64,000 nt of DNA. Origin: a virus. The translations under genes and the position numbers were made by a program. This document shows positions 6,177-42,499 of the stretch, piece after piece (positions within the stretch are counted from its first letter, which is position 1; each line of letters begins with the position of its first letter). The stretch lies in the IMG/VR virus record IMGVR_UViG_3300033150_001207, positions 20,204 through 84,203 of that record. The stretch is one strand, 5' to 3'. The notes under the pieces were generated by a model that ran no database searches, was not told the DNA's origin, and was given only the letters and a program-made list of their open reading frames with translations.

Positions 6177-7169
6177 ATGTTTGATGTATTAGCACTCTGT
6201 CAATTCGATTGGGCAAACACAGCTTATAAGTTTTGCCAGTGCTTACAAACACTGGGTATTAACGTAATCGGGTATAAGGGGCAACCTCATGAATTTAATT
6301 ATGTCAATCAGTTGCCTATTCATCTGGAACTTAATAAAGGTATAATTGGCAATAAACATCCGCTTGTCGTATTCGCACCCGGCATGAAAGGGCTTGTTGA
6401 AAAGGCCAAAGTTGTACATTTCTTTGCAAGTACATTTATTGAAACGGGTGTTGATTTATCAAATAAGAAAATAATTGCACAACATGGCGGTACAACTTAC
6501 AGGCTTGATCCAAAAGCAAGTAACGAGGTGTTCAATCCGATGGTTACTGCTACAATAATACAGTACCCAACGTTACTTAACAAGGGCGCAAAGAATGAAC
6601 ACTTAATTTATTATCCAGTTGATACCAATTTCATACAGCCAGATTTTGAACGCAAAGGCAAAAGTAAACTCATAGTGGGACATTTTCCGAGTACATGCGA
6701 TTCAAAAGGTACTGAAACCATTGTGAATGTAATGGACAAATTGAAGGACAAATTCGAGTATATAGGTGTACGCAAAGATATTCGCATCGATTGGTTGAAC
6801 AATCTCGAAAGGGTAAACAAATGCGACATATTAATAGAAACAATTAAGCCAGAGTTGATGGGAAAAGAATTTGGAAGCTGGGGAAATGCCTGCCTGGAAG
6901 CTGCCGCTCTCGGTAAAATAGTGATAACCAATGATAATTATCAAGATATATATAAACGGGAATATGGCAATTGGTTCGAGCCTATGATAGCCAATGACGG
7001 TGAACAACTCGAACAAAGATTACTCGAATTGTATGATTATATGGATAAAGAAATATTCCATAAGAAACAAGCATCACGGGAATGGGTAGTACAATGCCAT
7101 TCAATATCTGTTACTGCCGAACGCCTGTGGGATAAAGCTTATCAATATCTAAACATCGGGAGAAAATAA
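6177..7169 (+). CDS. GT-B (GT4-like) glycosyltransferase
   Basis: HFPS..DSKGTE, CDILIE...WGNACLEAAALGKIVITND donor-binding motif, C-terminal SREWVVQCHS helix. Confidence 0.85.
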   Translation: MFDVLALCQFDWANTAYKFCQCLQTLGINVIGYKGQPHEFNYVNQLPIHLELNKGIIGNKHPLVVFAPGMKGLVEKAKVVHFFASTFIETGVDLSNKKIIAQHGGTTYRLDPKASNEVFNPMVTATIIQYPTLLNKGAKNEHLIYYPVDTNFIQPDFERKGKSKLIVGHFPSTCDSKGTETIVNVMDKLKDKFEYIGVRKDIRIDWLNNLERVNKCDILIETIKPELMGKEFGSWGNACLEAAALGKIVITNDNYQDIYKREYGNWFEPMIANDGEQLEQRLLELYDYMDKEIFHKKQASREWVVQCHSISVTAERLWDKAYQYLNIGRK

Positions 7170-8234
7170 ATGAATGTAAAACCGAAAGTAACAATGATTA
7201 GCTTACATTGCTGCATAAGAGTTGTCAAAGAAGCAATAGCACTAAAGAATCATGGGTATGAGGTGCACGGAATACTCGGTGCATTGGCAATGCGTGATGT
7301 ATTCGATACAATCACCATATTTACGGATGGGGATAGTTTACAAAAAGCGGTTAAAGATTCAAATGCTGATATATTTCATGTGCATAATGAACCAGATTGG
7401 ATTGTACCATTAATAAAATACCCAGCGAAGAAAAAACCTATTATCTGGGATATGCACGACCCTGAACATTTACGTGATAACAATCCGAAACCAGAAGAAA
7501 CGACATCTGTCATGCTTGCGGATGGTATTGTACACGTAAGTGAACCATGTATGAAAGCACTACATAAAGCGTATGAATATAATAAACCAGAATGCGTAAT
7601 ACATTCAATGGTAAATGAAAAGTTTATGCCGCCAGATAATGCAATTATTCCAGACCCAAGTTTTAAATCAATTGTATATGAAGGGGGTATAGACGATACC
7701 GAAAAACCTGTTATAATCGGCGAAGACCCATCGGGTTCAGATAAAACGCTAGCCAGAGTAAATTTAAGATATATTATTGATATAGTAAAAGCTTTTTGTG
7801 TTTCTGGGTACAATTTTACAATTCTTTGTGCAAAGAATCTTAAAAATAATAATTATCAGAATGCAGGCGCTTTTGTTGTAAAACCAGTGCCATATGGTCA
7901 GATGTTGTTAGGTTTGCGTTCTCATGGATTAGGACTTAACGGTTCCCCATACAATTCAAGACTGTTGCAATATGCTTCACCGAATAAATTATGGGAATAT
8001 ATAAGTCAGGGTGTTGTGCCAGTGTGTTTTAATACAGACGAAAGTTTCAGACTTTGTGAACAGTATGATATCGGATTAAAGTTGACTTCACTTAACAATA
8101 TAGAAAGCCAGTTGACTGAAGCGCCGCAAAAACGAAAGAATCTGCTTAAAGTAAGAAAAGAATTCACAATGGAAAGTGAAATACCGAAGCTGATGAGGCT
8201 GTACGAAAAAGTATTGAGTAATGAAAAAACATAA
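7170..8234 (+). CDS. GT-B (GT4-like) glycosyltransferase
   Basis: ADIFHVHNEPD, PIIWDMHD, IVYEGG, ASPNKLWEYISQGVVPV. Confidence 0.88.
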   Translation: MNVKPKVTMISLHCCIRVVKEAIALKNHGYEVHGILGALAMRDVFDTITIFTDGDSLQKAVKDSNADIFHVHNEPDWIVPLIKYPAKKKPIIWDMHDPEHLRDNNPKPEETTSVMLADGIVHVSEPCMKALHKAYEYNKPECVIHSMVNEKFMPPDNAIIPDPSFKSIVYEGGIDDTEKPVIIGEDPSGSDKTLARVNLRYIIDIVKAFCVSGYNFTILCAKNLKNNNYQNAGAFVVKPVPYGQMLLGLRSHGLGLNGSPYNSRLLQYASPNKLWEYISQGVVPVCFNTDESFRLCEQYDIGLKLTSLNNIESQLTEAPQKRKNLLKVRKEFTMESEIPKLMRLYEKVLSNEKT

Positions 8235-27921: not shown

Positions 27922-30900
27922 TTGCCAATCATTGATGTAAAAGATATTCCTGATGATATTGTAATTCGTGAAAGAGAAACTGTATCTACTAGAGAACCTG
28001 TAGCTATTCCTTCAGGTGGCAGGCTAGTGTCGCCAGAGGATATTCCTGAAGATATAGTAATACATGAAAGGGAAATTGCACCTTCTGCAAAACCTGTAAA
28101 GATAGAAGAACCTATTCGTGAGATTCCAGAATCAATACCGGCCCGAATAGAACCTCGTAAAAGGCTTGGGAAAATAACACCGGTAGAACCAGTGTCAACC
28201 GCTGAAGAAAAGGCACGAAAACCTTTCGTTCCTGTTCCTGCGCCGATTGGATATAAACCACCTTCTATTGAAACAGAAAAGCCCGAACTGTTTGTACCGG
28301 CAGCAGAGAAACAAATTAAAAAATTACCCACTACTGAGCCAGAAGAAATACCATCCTCTTTGAAGCCCGCAATAGCTGAACCGGTGTCTCTCTACGTCAA
28401 ACCAAGATTCAAGCCCGAACCAGAGGAACAAAAATTCAGGGATATAATAAAATCTCACTGGAAAATAGGTTCTCTGGTTATAAAAAGAGGAGAGTTGGGT
28501 GCAAATGCAAGAGATACTGGTCTCTCAGTCGAAGAAACTCTAAAACAGGCTAGAGAAATTGACAAACTGGCAAAATCATACAGAAAAAAAATGCCCGAAT
28601 TTAGCATAAAGAAACCCACAACCTGGTTACCCTCTCTCGTAGCGCAAACAACCGAATTAATACCATATATGGGCAGAGGACAAGTTGAGGGTATGAAAAT
28701 GGGTATTGCTACTGGTGTTGGATTTGGCACGATGACTGCGCTCTGGGGTCAAGCCGGTCCGCAGGTATTAACCCCTGAAGAAGTATTAACCATTCCAGGG
28801 GCGATGGCTGTAGGCGGAACTGCCGGATGGGTTCTGGGCTCACTTAAAAATTGTATGGATATTGAGGGTGGTAACTTATATATAGACTTACTCGAACGTG
28901 GTGTAAAACCAAAAGTAGCAAAACAGCTTTCATTGGCGGGAGGGCTTGCAATAGGTGCTATTGAAGTTGCACAGATAGGTAGAATAGCTAGAAACTTACC
29001 AGGATTCGAGTTATTCTTTAGAAAAGGTGCTAAAAAACTAATTGCAAGCGATACATTCAAGAACATACTTAAAATCTCTGCAAAAGAATACGCAAAAGAT
29101 GTTGGCTATGAAATAGGAGAAGAAGAAGCACAGGAAATTGCATCAATGGCATCCGAATTTGTTGGCAGTTCTATATCTCCGGGCGCAGAAAAACTTACAT
29201 TTGGTGAAGCAAAGGATAGATTGAAAGGAGTAATTACACAGTCTGCTCTTGGATTTACGGGACTGTTGTTACCCGGACAGCTTTATAAAACAATTGGTAG
29301 AACCAGAGCTTTGAATATAAAGAAAAGTCTTGACGCTCTTGTGGAAGAAAAAACACCTAAACCGCCCGAAGTTACCAAACCACCGTCTGTCGTTCCTGAA
29401 GTAGAGAAAATCGTTCCCAGGCCGCCTGAAGCAGTCAAAGAAGTATGGGAAATGACAAAAGAAGAATTGAAAAATCTCGAAATTCCAGTTCCTGAAGGCG
29501 GCGCAAGCAAATCCCCTAAAACTGTTTTTAGCTGGAAACCAGGTGAATACGAAACGTTACATGATGTGAGCCAGTCAGAAGATGAATTTAGATTTAACGA
29601 AATACTTGGCAAAGGGTGGGAAGGTAAAGCATCATTACACTTAAAACCGAAGATAAAAAACAATGAGCCCATAACTGTTTACAGAGCGAGTGATTACGAG
29701 ATTATACCGGGTTCTTACGTTTCCGAAAGTATCGAATATGCAAAAAAACATGGCGAGAATATACTTGATGGTAAATACAAAATACATTCACTGGAAGTGA
29801 AACCGAGCGAACTGTTAGTATACGGAGACCCTCATGAATTTATTTATGTACCAGAATCCATCGAAGTTGGGCATAAACGCATAATAGAAAAAGCTCTATC
29901 TGAAGGCAAACCAGTTCCTAAAGAGGTATTGGAAGATTACCCCGAACTACAGGAAAAAGCAAAAGAATATGAAAAACCAGAGAAACTCGAAATATCTGTT
30001 TTAGATCCCAAGCCTGGCGATATTACGGGTTCAAAAGATATGTTGCCAAAACTTATAAAACTTAGAGACAAAGGCTCTGAAATGGTTAAACCAGATATCG
30101 TAAACAAACTCGAAAAATTCTGGAAAGAAAACCCCGAAGCTGAGTACGGTATATGGCAAGAAGATTTATCAATAAAACCTGTAACCAAAGAAACACTCGA
30201 AAAACCGCCTGAAATCACTGAACCCACCATTACTAAAGTAACCAAAGCTATTCCCGAAAAAGCCCCAGCTATCACTGGTAGAAAATCCACGGCAAAAACA
30301 GAGGCGGGTACAGAAATAGAATTTGACTATGATATTTACGACATTAACGACATTATTGCTTCCCACGATACAAACCTGCGAGCCAATCCACTATATCCAG
30401 CGGAAAAACAACCCCGTGGCAGAGCAAGAATGGCATCCGAAGCTCAAATTAACAAAATTACCCGTGAATTAGCACCTGAACGTCTTGGTGAAAATCCACT
30501 TGTGTCAGAAGGTGCTCCAATTGTCGACAAATCCGCCATTGTAGAATCAGGTAATGCGAGAATTATTGCACTACAGAGACTTTATGAATCAAAAAGTGAT
30601 AAAGCAAAAGAATATAAACAGTTTTTAATAGATAATGCTGAAAAATTCGGGTTGGATGTCGATAAGATTAGGGACATTGCCAATCCTGTACTTGTAAGAA
30701 GAAGATTATCAGATGTTGACATAGATAAGTTTATAAGAGAAGCAAACGTACCTACTGTTGCCGCTATGAGCGCTACCGAACAGGCGTTATCTGACGCAAA
30801 AATGCTTTCCGACGAAACTCTTGCAATGTTCGATGTGGGCGAAACAGGTGAAATAGATACAGCGGCAAATAGAGATTTTGTGCGTAGATTTTTCAAGGAA

Positions 30901-38393: not shown

Positions 38394-38594
38394 ATGAAAG
38401 AGCAATTTTCAGAAGGCGATAAAGTTCACATAACGCTCAAAGGTATAGTTGTAGAACTTGATGAAGGATATTATACCAAGGAATACAGCGAAGATTGTCA
38501 ATGGTATAATGTGTATGTACCAGAAATAGATGATGTTGTTACGGTATCAACTTCTAATGACGGCGGAAATATAAAACTTGAAAAAAGAGATTGA
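38394..38594 (+). CDS. Small SH3/KOW-like hypothetical protein
   Basis: FSEGDKVHI..KGIVVE...YNVY. Confidence 0.5.
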   Translation: MKEQFSEGDKVHITLKGIVVELDEGYYTKEYSEDCQWYNVYVPEIDDVVTVSTSNDGGNIKLEKRD

Positions 38595-39064
38595 TAAACC
38601 AGAGGGAAAACGAAGAAATGAATAATAATCCTGGATTAATATCTCGTGTAGGTTTGGAAATAATAAAAGAACATGAGGGTTTTAGGCAATATCCGTATAA
38701 ATGCAGTGCAAATAAAACTACAATAGGCTACGGGCACAACCTTGATGATAGAGGTATTTCTAAAAAAATAGCAGAGATGATATTCAAAGAAGATATAAAC
38801 GTTGCCATCGATGACGTATTTGAAATATTTCCCGATTTCCATAAGTTCACCGAGAACCAGAAAATTGTACTTGTTGACATGATGTTCAATCTCGGTATAA
38901 TTCGCTTCAGAAAATTCAGAAAAATGATAAGAGCAATAAAAAAGGGTGATTGGAAAAAGGCGATTATCGAAATGAGAAATTCACGATGGTATTCTCAAGT
39001 AACAAATCGGGTAGAGGACTTGATTGATTTGCTAGAGGAAGACTTGCAAGAAACGGAGAGTTAA
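38591..39064 (+). CDS. Endolysin, GH24 T4-like lysozyme (ATG start probably 38618)
   Basis: HEGFRQYPYKCSANKTTIGYGHNL (E-x8-C-x5-T), DMMFNLG, EMRNSRWYSQV..R. Confidence 0.93.
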   Translation: MINQRENEEMNNNPGLISRVGLEIIKEHEGFRQYPYKCSANKTTIGYGHNLDDRGISKKIAEMIFKEDINVAIDDVFEIFPDFHKFTENQKIVLVDMMFNLGIIRFRKFRKMIRAIKKGDWKKAIIEMRNSRWYSQVTNRVEDLIDLLEEDLQETES

Positions 39065-39541
39065 ATGGGTATATTAAATAAAATAGTTAATTTACTTACC
39101 GGCGATTTCGGGGCAAAAATCGTTGGCGCTATCAGGGATTATTTTCCGCCTTCTCTTTCGGATGCGGAAAAGCGAGATTTTGAATTGAAGATTATGGAAA
39201 TCACACAGGCTCATGAGATTGAACTTTTAAAAGAATTGAATGTTGCGGAATCTGAATTCAATCAGAGAATCAAAGAGCTTGAAGGAACAGCATCCGATTT
39301 GAGGCAAATACCTGTGCTTGGTTCGATTATTTTGTTCATGAGAGGATGCCAGCGCCCGGCGTTTGGATTCTTTACGCTTGCGATGGATTGCCTGGTGTTC
39401 GGCGGATACTGGACAATACAGGAAAATTCACGAATAGAAACTGCATTTCTTGTAATAAATTTGCTGGTCTTAGGTTTTTTGTTCGGGGAACGGGCTATCA
39501 AAAATGTAATACCATTATTTGAAAAATATATGAAAAAGTAG
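39065..39541 (+). CDS. Holin (3TM/GTA-holin-like)
   Basis: Follows the endolysin; RG..RP then two TM helices and LVLGFLFGER. Confidence 0.75.
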   Translation: MGILNKIVNLLTGDFGAKIVGAIRDYFPPSLSDAEKRDFELKIMEITQAHEIELLKELNVAESEFNQRIKELEGTASDLRQIPVLGSIILFMRGCQRPAFGFFTLAMDCLVFGGYWTIQENSRIETAFLVINLLVLGFLFGERAIKNVIPLFEKYMKK

Positions 39542-39982
39542 GTGAGAACTATAAAAAAGTTATTGTTAATAATATCACTGTGCTTACTCGTGTGCTGTGA
39601 TATATTCAGAGGTCCAACAGGACCGCCGGGTGAACGAGGTCCAGAAGGTCCACCTGGTCCGCAAGGAGAAGTCGGTACGGATGACGATTATTGTGTAATG
39701 GTTGAAATGTTTCTTACACAAGATAATCATACTGGCGGAAATTGGGTTTATGTAATAGACAGACAGATAATGCCTTTTGTGACTGATGTTGTATTATTCT
39801 TTGCGTCAATACCCGATTATAACGAGGGGCGATTCTTCAAGCTTGCTTACGGTACATACTGGTTGTTGGATGGCAATCAAATACGGATTGATTACAACCC
39901 GTACCTGATAAACACAGTTATTATTATAAAGATAAAAATTGAAAAACCTGTTATTATAACGGAAAACGAAGAAGAAAAATGA
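39542..39982 (+). CDS. Lipoprotein with short collagen-like repeat
   Basis: Signal ending LLVCC followed by GPTGPPGERGPEGPPGPQGEVG. Confidence 0.7.
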   Translation: MRTIKKLLLIISLCLLVCCDIFRGPTGPPGERGPEGPPGPQGEVGTDDDYCVMVEMFLTQDNHTGGNWVYVIDRQIMPFVTDVVLFFASIPDYNEGRFFKLAYGTYWLLDGNQIRIDYNPYLINTVIIIKIKIEKPVIITENEEEK

Positions 39983-39994
39983 TATTGAAATCAG

Positions 39995-40273
39995 GTGATA
40001 GTAATGGGTTTGTACGATACGGTCAGCAGACTTAACTTACAAATCAAGTGTATTGCTCACGATGAACCGACAATGAAACATTACAATATTGGCGATGAAA
40101 TACCATTACAGGATGGTGTTTGCATTTGTTATGGGGGTTGGTTTACGGTCAATAGTGGAAAAGTTCGTGATGCTGGCAAAGAGATATTCACAAAGTATGG
40201 CGGTAAACTTGATGGCGATGAAATCATAAGTGCTCTGAATCCTGTGTTTATTGTTTTAAATGGTATAAAATAA
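39995..40273 (+). CDS. Hypothetical phage protein
   Basis: MGLYDTV...QIK...M..Y.IGD pattern; AGGTG RBS. Confidence 0.55.
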   Translation: MIVMGLYDTVSRLNLQIKCIAHDEPTMKHYNIGDEIPLQDGVCICYGGWFTVNSGKVRDAGKEIFTKYGGKLDGDEIISALNPVFIVLNGIK

Positions 40274-40274
40274 T

Positions 40275-40348
40275 GGGGGTGACAGAGGTTCAATAAAATA
40301 AAGGAAATTTCACTTGTTTAAACACGCGTTCGAGTCGCGTCATCCCCA
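40275..40348 (+). ncRNA. tRNA-like RNA resembling an isolated tmRNA tRNA-like domain
   Basis: Acceptor GGGGGUG/CAUCCCC+A; stemless D region ACAGAGGUUCAA; short AAAUAA/UUGUUU stem; T arm ACGCG-UUCGAGU-CGCGU; no anticodon arm, no encoded CCA. Confidence 0.6.
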
Positions 40349-40569
40349 TCGAATGGCTTGTTTGTTGTATGCAGAATGGATTAAGTAAGTGGTAATAGTA
40401 AATTCCTGGCTTTTATGGACGCATAAACCAGTGGGAACGATAGGGTTTTGATAGAATACCTACTCGCCCATCAATGCTCATATTACCATTTGGAATATTG
40501 AGATCGAGAGACGGTATGCCGTGATGTTTGCCGTTTCTTGCAATTGTATATCACGAAAAGGGAATATAA

Positions 40570-40767
40570 GTGATAAACGTTTACAAAGATGAAAATACTA
40601 CTGCTGACCGCTGGATAGTCGAGTGTACCTCATTGAATCTATTGATAGAAGAAGTCGGCATCGAAAATGCCATAAGCAGATTTTGTGATGTACTCAAAGG
40701 TTTCTTGATTGAAAGCCATCGCAGAGGCAAACTGGCAAAAATATTGGATAATCAGCATGAAAGATAA
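40570..40767 (+). CDS. HicB-like small protein
   Basis: WIVECTSLNLLIEEVGIENAISRF beta-beta-beta-alpha pattern. Confidence 0.4.
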   Translation: MINVYKDENTTADRWIVECTSLNLLIEEVGIENAISRFCDVLKGFLIESHRRGKLAKILDNQHER

Positions 40768-40797
40768 TCCTTGGCTCGCTAACGAAAGACAATTACG

Positions 40798-41082
40798 GTG
40801 GTAAGGCTGTCATATACAGATACAATTACGGTAATCAAGGAATCGAGTATTCCGCAACGGGATAAGGATGATATGATAAAATCTGTTAATTATTTGCAAG
40901 AGTGTGGGGATGCGCCACTTGGCTACGGTTTTACTGTTGAGATATGCTCCCACTGCGGTTACCAGCAACTTTCTATTCATCCAATTCCCATGAAACATCC
41001 GAGTGAATGCAATAAGTGTGGCAGGAAGGCCTGTTACGTGGATGAAGATTTTGAGAACGAATTCAAAAGCAAGGAAATGTAA
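40798..41082 (+). CDS. Zinc-ribbon protein
   Basis: CSHCG and CNKCG. Confidence 0.55.
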   Translation: MVRLSYTDTITVIKESSIPQRDKDDMIKSVNYLQECGDAPLGYGFTVEICSHCGYQQLSIHPIPMKHPSECNKCGRKACYVDEDFENEFKSKEM

Positions 41083-41218
41083 ATGGAATTCACTACACAG
41101 ATACTAATTGTGGCATTATTAATAATCGTACTATTTGTTGCTGTAAATAGATAAGAAACCGAAAGTAACCAAGCAATTTCCCAGATAGTACACATAAACA
41201 TTAACACGGGAGAACTAC

Positions 41219-42499
41219 ATGAGTAACCATTATAAATTACCTGATGATATTCTCTTCGAGCAATTCCGCAAAATAATCCTCGAATATCCTGATATAAGCG
41301 CAGATAAATACGACAAACTACAAGTTCCAAATAAGCCGCCACGTACAACATTGCGGCGTCGCTTTGGTGAATGGCAAAATATAAAAGCAATGGCGCTCGG
41401 CGGCGGCGATGTAGAGATTATTGTAGAAAATGTGCGACTGGCTAAACAAAAACAGCGGTTTGAAGACAGAAACAGAATCGAGCGTAAAAGTTTCCGCCAA
41501 TATTGCCGTATTGAAAATGCTGTCGTAGAACTTAATAAAAAATTTATTGATCTGCTCGAACACAACAGCCTCAAAAGATTTGTCAAGCACTTTAAACCGA
41601 GTAAACCAATAGATGAAAATGCTGTCGGTCTTTTGCACTTTACGGATGCTCATTTTAATGAACTTGTTGAACTCGCAAATAATAGGTACGATTTTGTTAT
41701 AGCAAGTAAACGCTGTAAAAAGTTGGTTAGAAAAGCAAAGCAATATTTTAAGCTCTTTAATATAAAGAATATTCTGTTTGCAATGACGGGAGATCTGATT
41801 AACAGCGATCGCCGCTTGGATGAACTGCTCAGCCAGGCGACTAATAGAAGCAAGGCTATGTTTCTTTCTGTGGAAATAATACAACAAATGTTGCTTGATT
41901 TAAATTCGGATTTCAACGTTACCGTTGCGTGCGTAACGGGTAATGAATCGAGGATACCGAATGATATTGCGTGGACAGATATAGTGGTGACCGATAACTA
42001 TGATTTTAGTATATTTAATATTTTACGATATCTGTTCAAAGACTGTAAGGGTATAGACTTTAATATTGGTGATAGTTACTCAGAACAGGTAATAAGCGTT
42101 GCTGGACAAAATGTGCTTCTCATTCACGGCAACCAGATAAGCACTAAAATTGAAGAATCGATACAGAAAATTAAAGGTAAATGGGCAGCAAAAGGTGTGA
42201 TTGTCGATTTCGTGATATGCGGGAACGTGCACAGCTGTCGCATAGGTGATACATATGCAAGGGGAAGCTCTGTCGTGGGGGCTAATGCATATTCAGAGGA
42301 GGGACTTCAACTAACCTCACGTGCCAGTCAAAACATCCATATATTTTTTCCAGATAAAACACGAGACTCAATTCGTATAGATTTACAGGATGTATCAGGT
42401 GAAGAAGGATATGATATCAGCAGGGAATTGGAAGAATATTGCGCAAAAAGCGCCGAGAAACTACACAAACCTATAACCATATTTAAAATACAAATATAA
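41219..42499 (+). CDS. Calcineurin-like metallophosphoesterase with N-terminal HTH
   Basis: TDAHFNE, TGDLI, TGNESR, IHG, GNVH; N-terminal PPRTTLRRRFGEWQN helix motif. Confidence 0.8.
   Translation: MSNHYKLPDDILFEQFRKIILEYPDISADKYDKLQVPNKPPRTTLRRRFGEWQNIKAMALGGGDVEIIVENVRLAKQKQRFEDRNRIERKSFRQYCRIENAVVELNKKFIDLLEHNSLKRFVKHFKPSKPIDENAVGLLHFTDAHFNELVELANNRYDFVIASKRCKKLVRKAKQYFKLFNIKNILFAMTGDLINSDRRLDELLSQATNRSKAMFLSVEIIQQMLLDLNSDFNVTVACVTGNESRIPNDIAWTDIVVTDNYDFSIFNILRYLFKDCKGIDFNIGDSYSEQVISVAGQNVLLIHGNQISTKIEESIQKIKGKWAAKGVIVDFVICGNVHSCRIGDTYARGSSVVGANAYSEEGLQLTSRASQNIHIFFPDKTRDSIRIDLQDVSGEEGYDISRELEEYCAKSAEKLHKPITIFKIQI

Follow-up and report, generated by a model that had tools for sequence, protein, structure and literature searches.

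What is the 74-nt element that directly follows the last open reading frame of a plus-strand gene block in a phage genome, and could it interfere with ribosome rescue in the host? An earlier note on this DNA had read the locus as a miniature tRNA-like domain of the tmRNA type and had proposed that it acts as a decoy for SmpB. The window referred to below is the whole stretch of DNA analysed, 64,000 nt in length, which corresponds to bases 20204–84203 of an 84,203-bp viral record that has direct terminal repeats and is rated 100% complete. The GC content of this genome is 37%.

Architecture and genomic setting of the element

The element extends over 74 nt from G1 to A73 (40275–40348, plus strand) and reads as a tmRNA-type tRNA-like domain (TLD) that has no tag frame and no encoded CCA. 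The 5′ strand of its acceptor stem, GGGGGUG (40275–40281), pairs at 7/7 positions with 40341–40347 (base-pair probabilities at least 0.998). The pairs are G1-C72, G2-C71, G3-C70, G4-C69, G5.U68, U6-A67, and G7-C66, and the helix aligns with zero non-standard pairs to both covariance models described below (R1 and R2). The stem is followed by A8 (40282), which opens a D-loop analogue (ACAGAGGTTCAA / ACAGAGGUUCAA; 40282–40293) that allows no D stem. Seen with the last base of the stem, this stretch (GA-CAGA-GG-UUCAA at 40281–40293) comprises A8 and the GG..UUC.A motif, with GG at positions 13–14, and it aligns to the consensus of the models. An AU-rich hairpin at about 40294–40320 replaces tmRNA helix 2 and closes the TLD; the three P2 pairs modelled there are U-A, A-U, and A-U in the element in both alignments. 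Hairpin and AAAC linker together (40294–40323) lie directly before the T arm (40324–40340), which consists of a 5-bp stem, ACGCG/CGCGU, and the loop UUCGAGU, and which is evident in the sequence, in a descriptor search, and in both models. The 3′ strand of the acceptor stem, CAUCCCC, and the discriminator A make up 40341–40348.

Position 70 is a C (40345), so that the third pair is G3-C70 (40277/40345), and the U at 40343 gives G5.U68, the sole wobble. As the discriminator A (40348) is followed by TCG, no CCA is encoded. Only 41 nt separate G7 from the T arm, and they hold no mRNA-like domain, resume codon, or tag frame. With 7 bp in the acceptor stem, 5 bp and a UUCGA-type loop in the T arm, and neither D stem nor anticodon arm, the element is built as a TLD is. 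The structural description given in the earlier note (acceptor stem, A8, stemless D region, AU-rich stem, perfect T arm, and discriminator A) is borne out by the sequence in every part, and so are its statements that message, G3.U70, and an encoded CCA are all absent and that the wobble lies at 5.68. Folding of 76 nt gave a z-score of −2.57. The tRNA-like fold has a free energy of −19.6 kcal/mol versus −21.0 kcal/mol for the minimum free energy (MFE) structure, a gap of 1.4 kcal/mol; the MFE structure lengthens the acceptor helix at the cost of two T-stem pairs.

The element closes a plus-strand block that encodes a 2327-aa protein, fibre-like proteins, an endolysin (38591–39064, plus strand; PHROG phrog_7, E 2.3e-25), and three small ORFs. 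The last of these ORFs (39995–40273, plus strand) terminates with a TAA codon at 40271–40273 and ends 1 nt before G1. The candidate extended −10 box put forward in the earlier note, TGGTATAAA, is indeed present at 40261–40269 on the plus strand, within the last codons of this ORF, and ends 5 nt before G1; however, a two-hexamer sigma-70 scan gave no plus-strand promoter at this box or elsewhere within 39900–40900. A scan of the same interval found no terminator-like site on the plus strand.

Downstream of the last small ORF is an ORF-free gap of 296 nt (40274–40569), the seventh largest in the genome by a crude ORF call. After the element, 221 nt of this gap form a trailer on the plus strand that reaches the next gene (40349–40569; from folding and ORF scanning). 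The trailer folds with −59.3 kcal/mol (z −2.14) on the plus strand and with −38.8 kcal/mol (z −0.61) on the minus strand. It has no Rfam match and no tag-like frame and may be cotranscribed with the element. Beyond the gap are two small ORFs, then an exonuclease/phosphoesterase gene (41219–42499; phrog_284, E 6e-50), whose product shares 43% identity with a Synechococcus phage S-CBS2 protein, and then a minus-strand helicase gene. Searches of the genome for SmpB, an RF-1/ArfB-type domain, and CCA-adding enzyme families were all negative. Nor was any tyrosine integrase, serine recombinase, or resolvase found genome-wide, the genome being complete with direct terminal repeats.

Detection of the element and a family of phage mini-tmRNAs

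The window contains a single occurrence of the 5′ motif GGGGNTGANNNNGGTTCRA, against an expectation of 0.02 at up to one mismatch, and a descriptor combining the acceptor stem and the T arm gave a single match on both strands of the window, which is the element. The element is missed by standard tools. ARAGORN, named in the earlier note as a check on its reading, found no tRNA or tmRNA at default settings in the window or in the whole genome. The element is not a functional tRNA, and it is not a complete tmRNA either. Rfam was likewise named there as a check. No family matched in the window at the gathering thresholds. The best tRNA-clan family on the element was tmRNA, not tRNA, in a search with 89 bases; yet the tmRNA model (RF00023), aligned over positions 1–374 of 374 in that search alone, scored 13.5 bits, below its threshold of 47. 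The same 89-base search listed tmRNA, tmRNA_permuted, and Ysr251, with two lower tRNA-clan matches suppressed. In a search with 401 bases RF00023 was not reported for the element at E up to 10, and tmRNA_permuted alone was listed. Other tRNA-like RNAs of Rfam (YrlA/Y RNA-like, tLRNA motifs, and others) gave no listed match to the element. The features by which ordinary tRNAs are recognized (D stem, anticodon arm, U8, and detection by a tRNA finder) are all absent from it. A permuted two-piece tmRNA was considered and rejected, as the match reached 12.7 bits (E 1.7) and the downstream GGGAACG pairs at 5/7 positions versus 7/7 for the upstream strand.

A pattern generalized from the element (GGGGNTGANNNNGGTTCRA, a gap of 15–45 nt, then GTTCGANTC) matched nine viral contigs in a first scan. 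These contigs yielded seven distinct sequences of 59–80 nt, each with acceptor stem, D-loop analogue, short hairpin, and T arm. All seven pass RF00023 end to end with 56–68 bits (threshold 47), indicating that the element-derived pattern retrieves bona fide tmRNA TLDs; ARAGORN called none of the seven. Covariance model R1 was built from these seven phage mini-tmRNAs with the element left out. It found the element at 40275–40351 with 44.9 bits (E 3.5e-8), at full length and with 15/15 pairs standard, the next best score in the window being 12.3 bits. The collection was then widened by a metagenome scan (26 loci) and a looser viral scan (83 stretches) to a total of 109 loci. With at least 4/5 T-stem pairs and at least 6/7 acceptor pairs taken as the definition of a well-formed mini-tmRNA, 100 of the 109 loci carry one, representing 63 distinct sequences of 59–85 nt. 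Nine loci, among them L091, L096, L106, L111, and L113, were dropped for poor acceptor pairing. Model R2 comprises the 63 sequences and the RNA of mycobacteriophage DS6A (64 in all), again with the element left out, and gave the element 47.2 bits (E 2.3e-9); the runner-up in the window scored 12.1 bits. The R1 and R2 scores are partly built in, because patterns taken from the element served to collect the members; the patterns left the P2 helix, the T stem, and the 3′ acceptor strand unconstrained, and all of these fit.

The shared structure covaries across the family (957/957 cells paired; score 0.644 versus 0.145 for shuffled alignments, a value reached by 0/500 shuffles), in an alignment that was fitted to the model and is therefore biased toward the structure. 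CCA is encoded in 19 of the 63 mini-tmRNAs. Other tRNA genes are present at 25 of the 100 loci that bear a mini-tmRNA versus none in the element's genome. The linker before the T arm is most often GGAC or similar, with AGAA, ACAC, ATAC, TAAT, and others also occurring; the AAAC of the element is mildly unusual in this respect. Such genes are nearly invisible to ARAGORN, which calls one of the 100 loci, and the element is also invisible at the Rfam thresholds. When cellular genomes (one per species) were searched, the general pattern occurred at six places, none of them well formed. With this pattern, the mini-tmRNA design is confined to viral and metagenomic DNA.

Close relatives of the element itself were also sought. 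Megablast of 39000–42000 against cultured phages gave no match, distant blastn of the element gave chance-level matches only (E about 3), and the exact 25-nt 3′ half occurred zero times in viral contigs. A single-protein scan with the exonuclease yielded no confirmed relative. With the exonuclease as anchor, 3027 homologous proteins (the best about 59–65% identical) and 80 viral loci were obtained, and none of the loci holds an element-like copy. Among these loci only L014 and L013 carry a tmRNA-like RNA, in both cases downstream of the exonuclease gene and in L014 6 nt past its stop codon. An endolysin gene is near the exonuclease gene in 48 of the loci. Where coordinates were compared (e.g., in L020) it is situated just upstream of the exonuclease gene, and the 2.1-kb insert that carries the element is missing there. 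The helicase of the element's phage is shared by 0/5 records with exonuclease homologues and by 0/5 records bearing a mini-tmRNA. Two other contigs encode an exonuclease identical to that of the element-bearing phage. The search for viral homologues, which the earlier note had also named, thus returned 63 distinct mini-tmRNAs of the same design and none with the element's variant.

Given the shared architecture and motifs, the element is very probably homologous to the tmRNA TLD and, in the broad sense, a member of the phage TLD-only group. That it is a remnant of a host gene or of an attachment site, or a chance structure, is hardly credible. The attP site of a temperate phage frequently contains the 3′ portion of a tRNA or tmRNA gene, as the available part of PMC9004378 also mentions. 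Against such an origin, both halves of the TLD are present rather than the 3′ end alone, and the complete genome has no tyrosine integrase or serine recombinase; chance is opposed by the expectation of 0.02 per window for the 5′ motif and by model E-values of about 1e-8 to 1e-9.

Two departures from the family and their possible meaning

The 3-70 pair is G.U in all 64 other members (the 63 mini-tmRNAs and DS6A) and G3-C70 in the element, with neither the patterns nor the pairing filter having preferred U over C at position 70. The position equivalent to G19 of tmRNA (E. coli numbering) is G in 63/63 mini-tmRNAs and in DS6A and A in the element (40292), the search patterns having permitted A or G there. 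The common acceptor stem of the family is GGGGGUG/CACCUCC, versus CAUCCCC for the 3′ strand of the element, and G5.U68 occurs in no other member. These sequences amount to a shift of the wobble, from 3.70 in the family to 5.68 in the element. On R1 the element scores lowest, with 44.9 bits versus 48.1–94.8 for the 64 others. Of the features invariant in the family, A73 is present in the element and U70 and the G19-equivalent G are absent. By sequence comparison, then, it is an outlier among the 64 others, without the alanine-mark base and without the SmpB-contact base. Because two features that are invariant in the TLD-only group are missing, we regard the element as a variant rather than a plain member. 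Scans specific for C70 found zero matches in viral contigs and zero in metagenome contigs (the element's own record having possibly been left out of these). As no homologue sharing its changes was found, covariation specific to the variant is lacking. The C at 40345 is that of the assembled record and may be an assembly error.

Both departures preserve the fold, since they replace G.U by G-C and a purine by a purine. In the element all 12 pairs of the acceptor and T stems are intact, as are the T loop, A8, GG, UUC, the following A, and A73. Changes of this kind, in a 37% GC genome where none of these pairs and no part of the T loop has been lost, suggest that the structure is still constrained.

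How might such an RNA act? Either the late/lysis operon, whose end lies 1 nt upstream, or the TGGTATAAA box would account for its transcription, and host tRNA-processing enzymes would trim the RNA and add a CCA end. G3.U70 is the identity mark for alanine. As this mark is absent, charging by AlaRS is not expected, and the element would presumably be left uncharged. An uncharged RNA is not expected to be delivered to ribosomes by EF-Tu, so that action by binding remains. Most plausibly, the RNA would rival the host tmRNA in binding SmpB or other factors that recognize TLDs, and this competition would damp trans-translation and ssrA tagging during infection. We favour this role because non-chargeable TLD molecules are reported to inhibit trans-translation (Mao et al., 2009, as cited in the available part of PMC4131195), which gives the SmpB decoy proposed in the earlier note a precedent. 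The same proposal is weakened by the second departure. According to the part of PMC8363625 available to us, G19 is highly conserved and stacks on a hydrophobic patch of SmpB, and the mutation G19C prevents SmpB binding; the element lacks the equivalent of this base, and its role as an SmpB decoy stays conjectural. By analogy with the non-chargeable molecules, the mechanism of an uncharged competitor is plausible and still doubtful. Our preferred reading as a whole, offered tentatively, is that the element is a diverged TLD-only mini-tmRNA that is not alanine-chargeable and acts as a competitor for partners of tmRNA, for instance SmpB. If it is functional, the element would separate binding from charging in a natural molecule and could serve as a ready-made control for studies of how phages interfere with ribosome rescue.

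The conservation seen in the family bears on this reading in two ways. Given that 64/64 others keep the alanine mark, the family would normally need charging, and its members probably enter ribosomes rather than acting merely as SmpB sponges. Given further that 64/64 keep U70 and 63/63 keep the G19-equivalent G, the usual job of the family would need both alanylation and SmpB contact, and a copy without both may be dead. "Dead" might be meant in an active sense, namely a tmRNA mimic whose fold is under selection, whose alanine mark has been lost, and whose SmpB-contact base has been retuned, so that it would be a pure sponge for SmpB or another TLD-binding host factor and would never enter the ribosome. 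We think this version rather unlikely. If true, a dead mimic would be the natural counterpart of the non-chargeable TLD constructs that are reported to inhibit trans-translation, and the phage mini-tmRNA family would be split into chargeable and non-chargeable functional classes.

The element might instead be dead in the plain sense, a recently inactivated relic of an alanine-accepting TLD-only mini-tmRNA that has undergone two transitions at key identity positions, is non-functional, and has not yet decayed further or been lost by deletion. The invariance of G3.U70 in 64/64 others and of the G19-equivalent G in 63/63 mini-tmRNAs is what this would predict, as are the lowest score on R1, a score far under the Rfam threshold, and the singleton status of the element, no relative with the same changes having appeared in the C70 scans. 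However, the 12 acceptor and T-stem pairs, T loop, A8, GG, UUC, and A73 are all intact, and random decay at 37% GC would be expected to break GC-rich stems equally often, whereas both changes are fold-preserving. This counter-argument is post hoc and weak, as it rests on two changes. The relic is a serious rival. We nevertheless rank it below the competitor, because the transitions preserve the fold and all stem pairs have survived in a genome rich in AT, and consider it rather unlikely. If it is correct, the element shows the early decay of such a gene.

Improbable, in our estimate, is a role in cis, in which the acceptor/T-arm minihelix would guide RNase P cleavage and trimming of the 3′ end where the late/lysis transcript finishes, or would cap, on the 5′ side, a longer structured RNA with the 221-nt trailer in it. 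The position of the element, 1 nt past the TAA of the ORF at 39995–40273 and on the same strand, is in keeping with such a processing or stability element. The same is true of the lack of a plus-strand terminator-like site in 39900–40900, of the trailer, with its z-score of −2.14 on the plus strand versus −0.61 on the minus strand, and of the other mini-tmRNAs that adjoin ORF ends (at 6 nt in L014 and 10 nt in DS6A). Nevertheless, a processing signal would not require the tmRNA-specific A8 and GG..UUC.A, which the element has kept. Processing in cis and a trans-acting role such as competition for tmRNA partners are compatible and not mutually exclusive.

A decayed ordinary tRNA, or a tRNA-like RNA without D arm and with a vestigial anticodon arm, is very improbable. 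The length of 74 nt is that of a tRNA without CCA, and an arm with a UUC-type loop can be drawn by hand at 40302–40318 (four pairs in a 5-position stem and a 7-nt loop); this arm contains a G.G mismatch, and no D stem is possible. ARAGORN made no call at default or with −ps, and with −ps80 its sole overlapping call was a permuted tmRNA. The best match in the Rfam tRNA clan is tmRNA, so that any match to tRNA is below 13.5 bits. An A at position 8 and GG at positions 13–14 are tmRNA-like and unlike tRNA norms, and the element has both, as tmRNA does.

Comparison with known systems

Bacterial tmRNA (ssrA, RF00023) shares with the element A8, the GG..UUC.A motif, the lack of an anticodon arm, a UUCGA-type T loop, and A73. 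The element differs from it in having no mRNA-like domain, pseudoknots, or tag, in having G3-C70 and A in place of G19, and in scoring below the Rfam threshold. Organellar tmRNAs without a coding sequence (CDS), from jakobid mitochondria and, at about 65 bp, Mallomonadaceae plastids, are described in the available part of PMC11915505, whose reference list includes Jacob et al. (2004). By that description they resemble the element in being TLDs without a tag frame and in their similar size, and differ from it in being organellar and in co-occurring with SmpB.

The 63 mini-tmRNAs from uncultured phages have the architecture, motifs, and discriminator A of the element; in contrast to it, all have G3.U70 and the G19-equivalent G, and none has G5.U68. 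Our literature search for a systematic account of phage TLD-only RNAs or SmpB decoys yielded remarks on DS6A only. TLD-only mini-tmRNAs are thus a recurrent and almost unstudied phage device.

The closest described counterpart is that of mycobacteriophage DS6A, the phage in which the TLD-only form was originally described and which is given as "TLD only" in the part of Hudson, Lau and Williams (2014; PMC4131195) available to us and corresponds to tmID 11587 of the tmRNA Website (PMC4131195 and PMC11915505, available parts). In E. coli, endogenous tmRNA is inhibited by the DS6A form, according to the available part of PMC11915505. Given the DS6A precedent and the CDS-less forms described in the accessible parts of these two sources, the TLD-only kind is not new. 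The DS6A RNA is encoded at 28478–28560 of JN698994, 10 nt past gp33 and before the gene for DNA polymerase III, and scores 52.6 bits on R1. In DS6A both G3.U70 and the G19-equivalent G are retained, whereas the present element has G3-C70 and A; DS6A reaches 43.2 bits on RF00023 versus 13.5 for the element; and DS6A encodes a tyrosine integrase, gp56, whereas none was found in the present genome. In other respects the two are alike. Both are phage-borne RNAs of about 80 nt, composed of acceptor stem, D-loop analogue, short closing hairpin, and T arm with no tag frame, and both directly follow the stop codon of an ORF. Phage-borne, 74 nt long within a range of 59–85 nt, closed by a short hairpin, and matched by the models, the present element has the hallmarks of a phage TLD-only RNA of the DS6A type.

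Phage TLD-only mini-tmRNAs

Viral and metagenomic contigs commonly carry phage mini-tmRNAs comprising the tRNA-like domain (TLD) of tmRNA without a tag reading frame. A well-formed TLD-only mini-tmRNA was present in 100 out of 109 loci examined (L002-L010, L091-L116 and L123-L196). After removal of duplicates, these 100 loci yielded 63 sequences, 59-85 nt long, and every one possesses G3.U70, A73 and a G at the G19-equivalent position. ARAGORN detected just one of the 100 loci. Other tRNA genes were present in 25 of them, lying no more than 500 nt from the mini-tmRNA in 18. Scanning cellular genomes (one per species) with the general pattern revealed no TLD-only mini-tmRNA.

The endolysin-exonuclease region and the trailer

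Of the 80 related loci recovered through exonuclease homologues (L011-L090), 48 have an endolysin homologue near the exonuclease gene, directly upstream of it where coordinates were compared (e.g., L020). Relative to these loci, the window phage carries approximately 2.1 kb extra between endolysin (38591-39064) and exonuclease (41219-42499), within 38591-42499, and this insert contains three small ORFs, the mini-tmRNA-like element (40275-40348, + strand), a trailer and two further small ORFs. The trailer, an ORF-free stretch of 221 nt (40349-40569), lies directly behind the element. Its + strand gave a fold of -59.3 kcal/mol (z -2.14), which is closed by a stem of 11 bp and includes a strong hairpin at about 40505-40540; the fold of the - strand was much weaker (-38.8 kcal/mol, z -0.61). 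An Rfam search of the trailer returned no match, and no tag-like frame was found in it. The sequence GGGAACGAUAGGGUUUUGA, at 40417-40435 inside the trailer, bears a loose resemblance to the 5′ half of a second TLD, and it accounts for a weak tmRNA_permuted match (12.7 bits, E 1.7).

Longer mini-tmRNA-like RNAs and the DS6A tmRNA

Two uncultured phages (L014 and L013), whose exonuclease is about 60% identical to that of the window phage, carry longer mini-tmRNA-like RNAs with G3.U70 and an encoded CCA, each starting 6 nt past the exonuclease stop codon. The L014 RNA (7087-7221, ~132-135 nt) scored 50.3 bits and the L013 RNA (7087-7184, 98 nt) 19 bits with R1, a covariance model built from seven other phage mini-tmRNAs.

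The published TLD-only tmRNA of mycobacteriophage DS6A, which is not annotated in GenBank record JN698994 (L197), lies at 28478-28560, between gp33 (10 nt past its end) and the DNA polymerase III gene. This RNA scored 43.2 bits with the Rfam tmRNA family RF00023, slightly below the gathering threshold of 47 bits, and its position 8 is C, not A.
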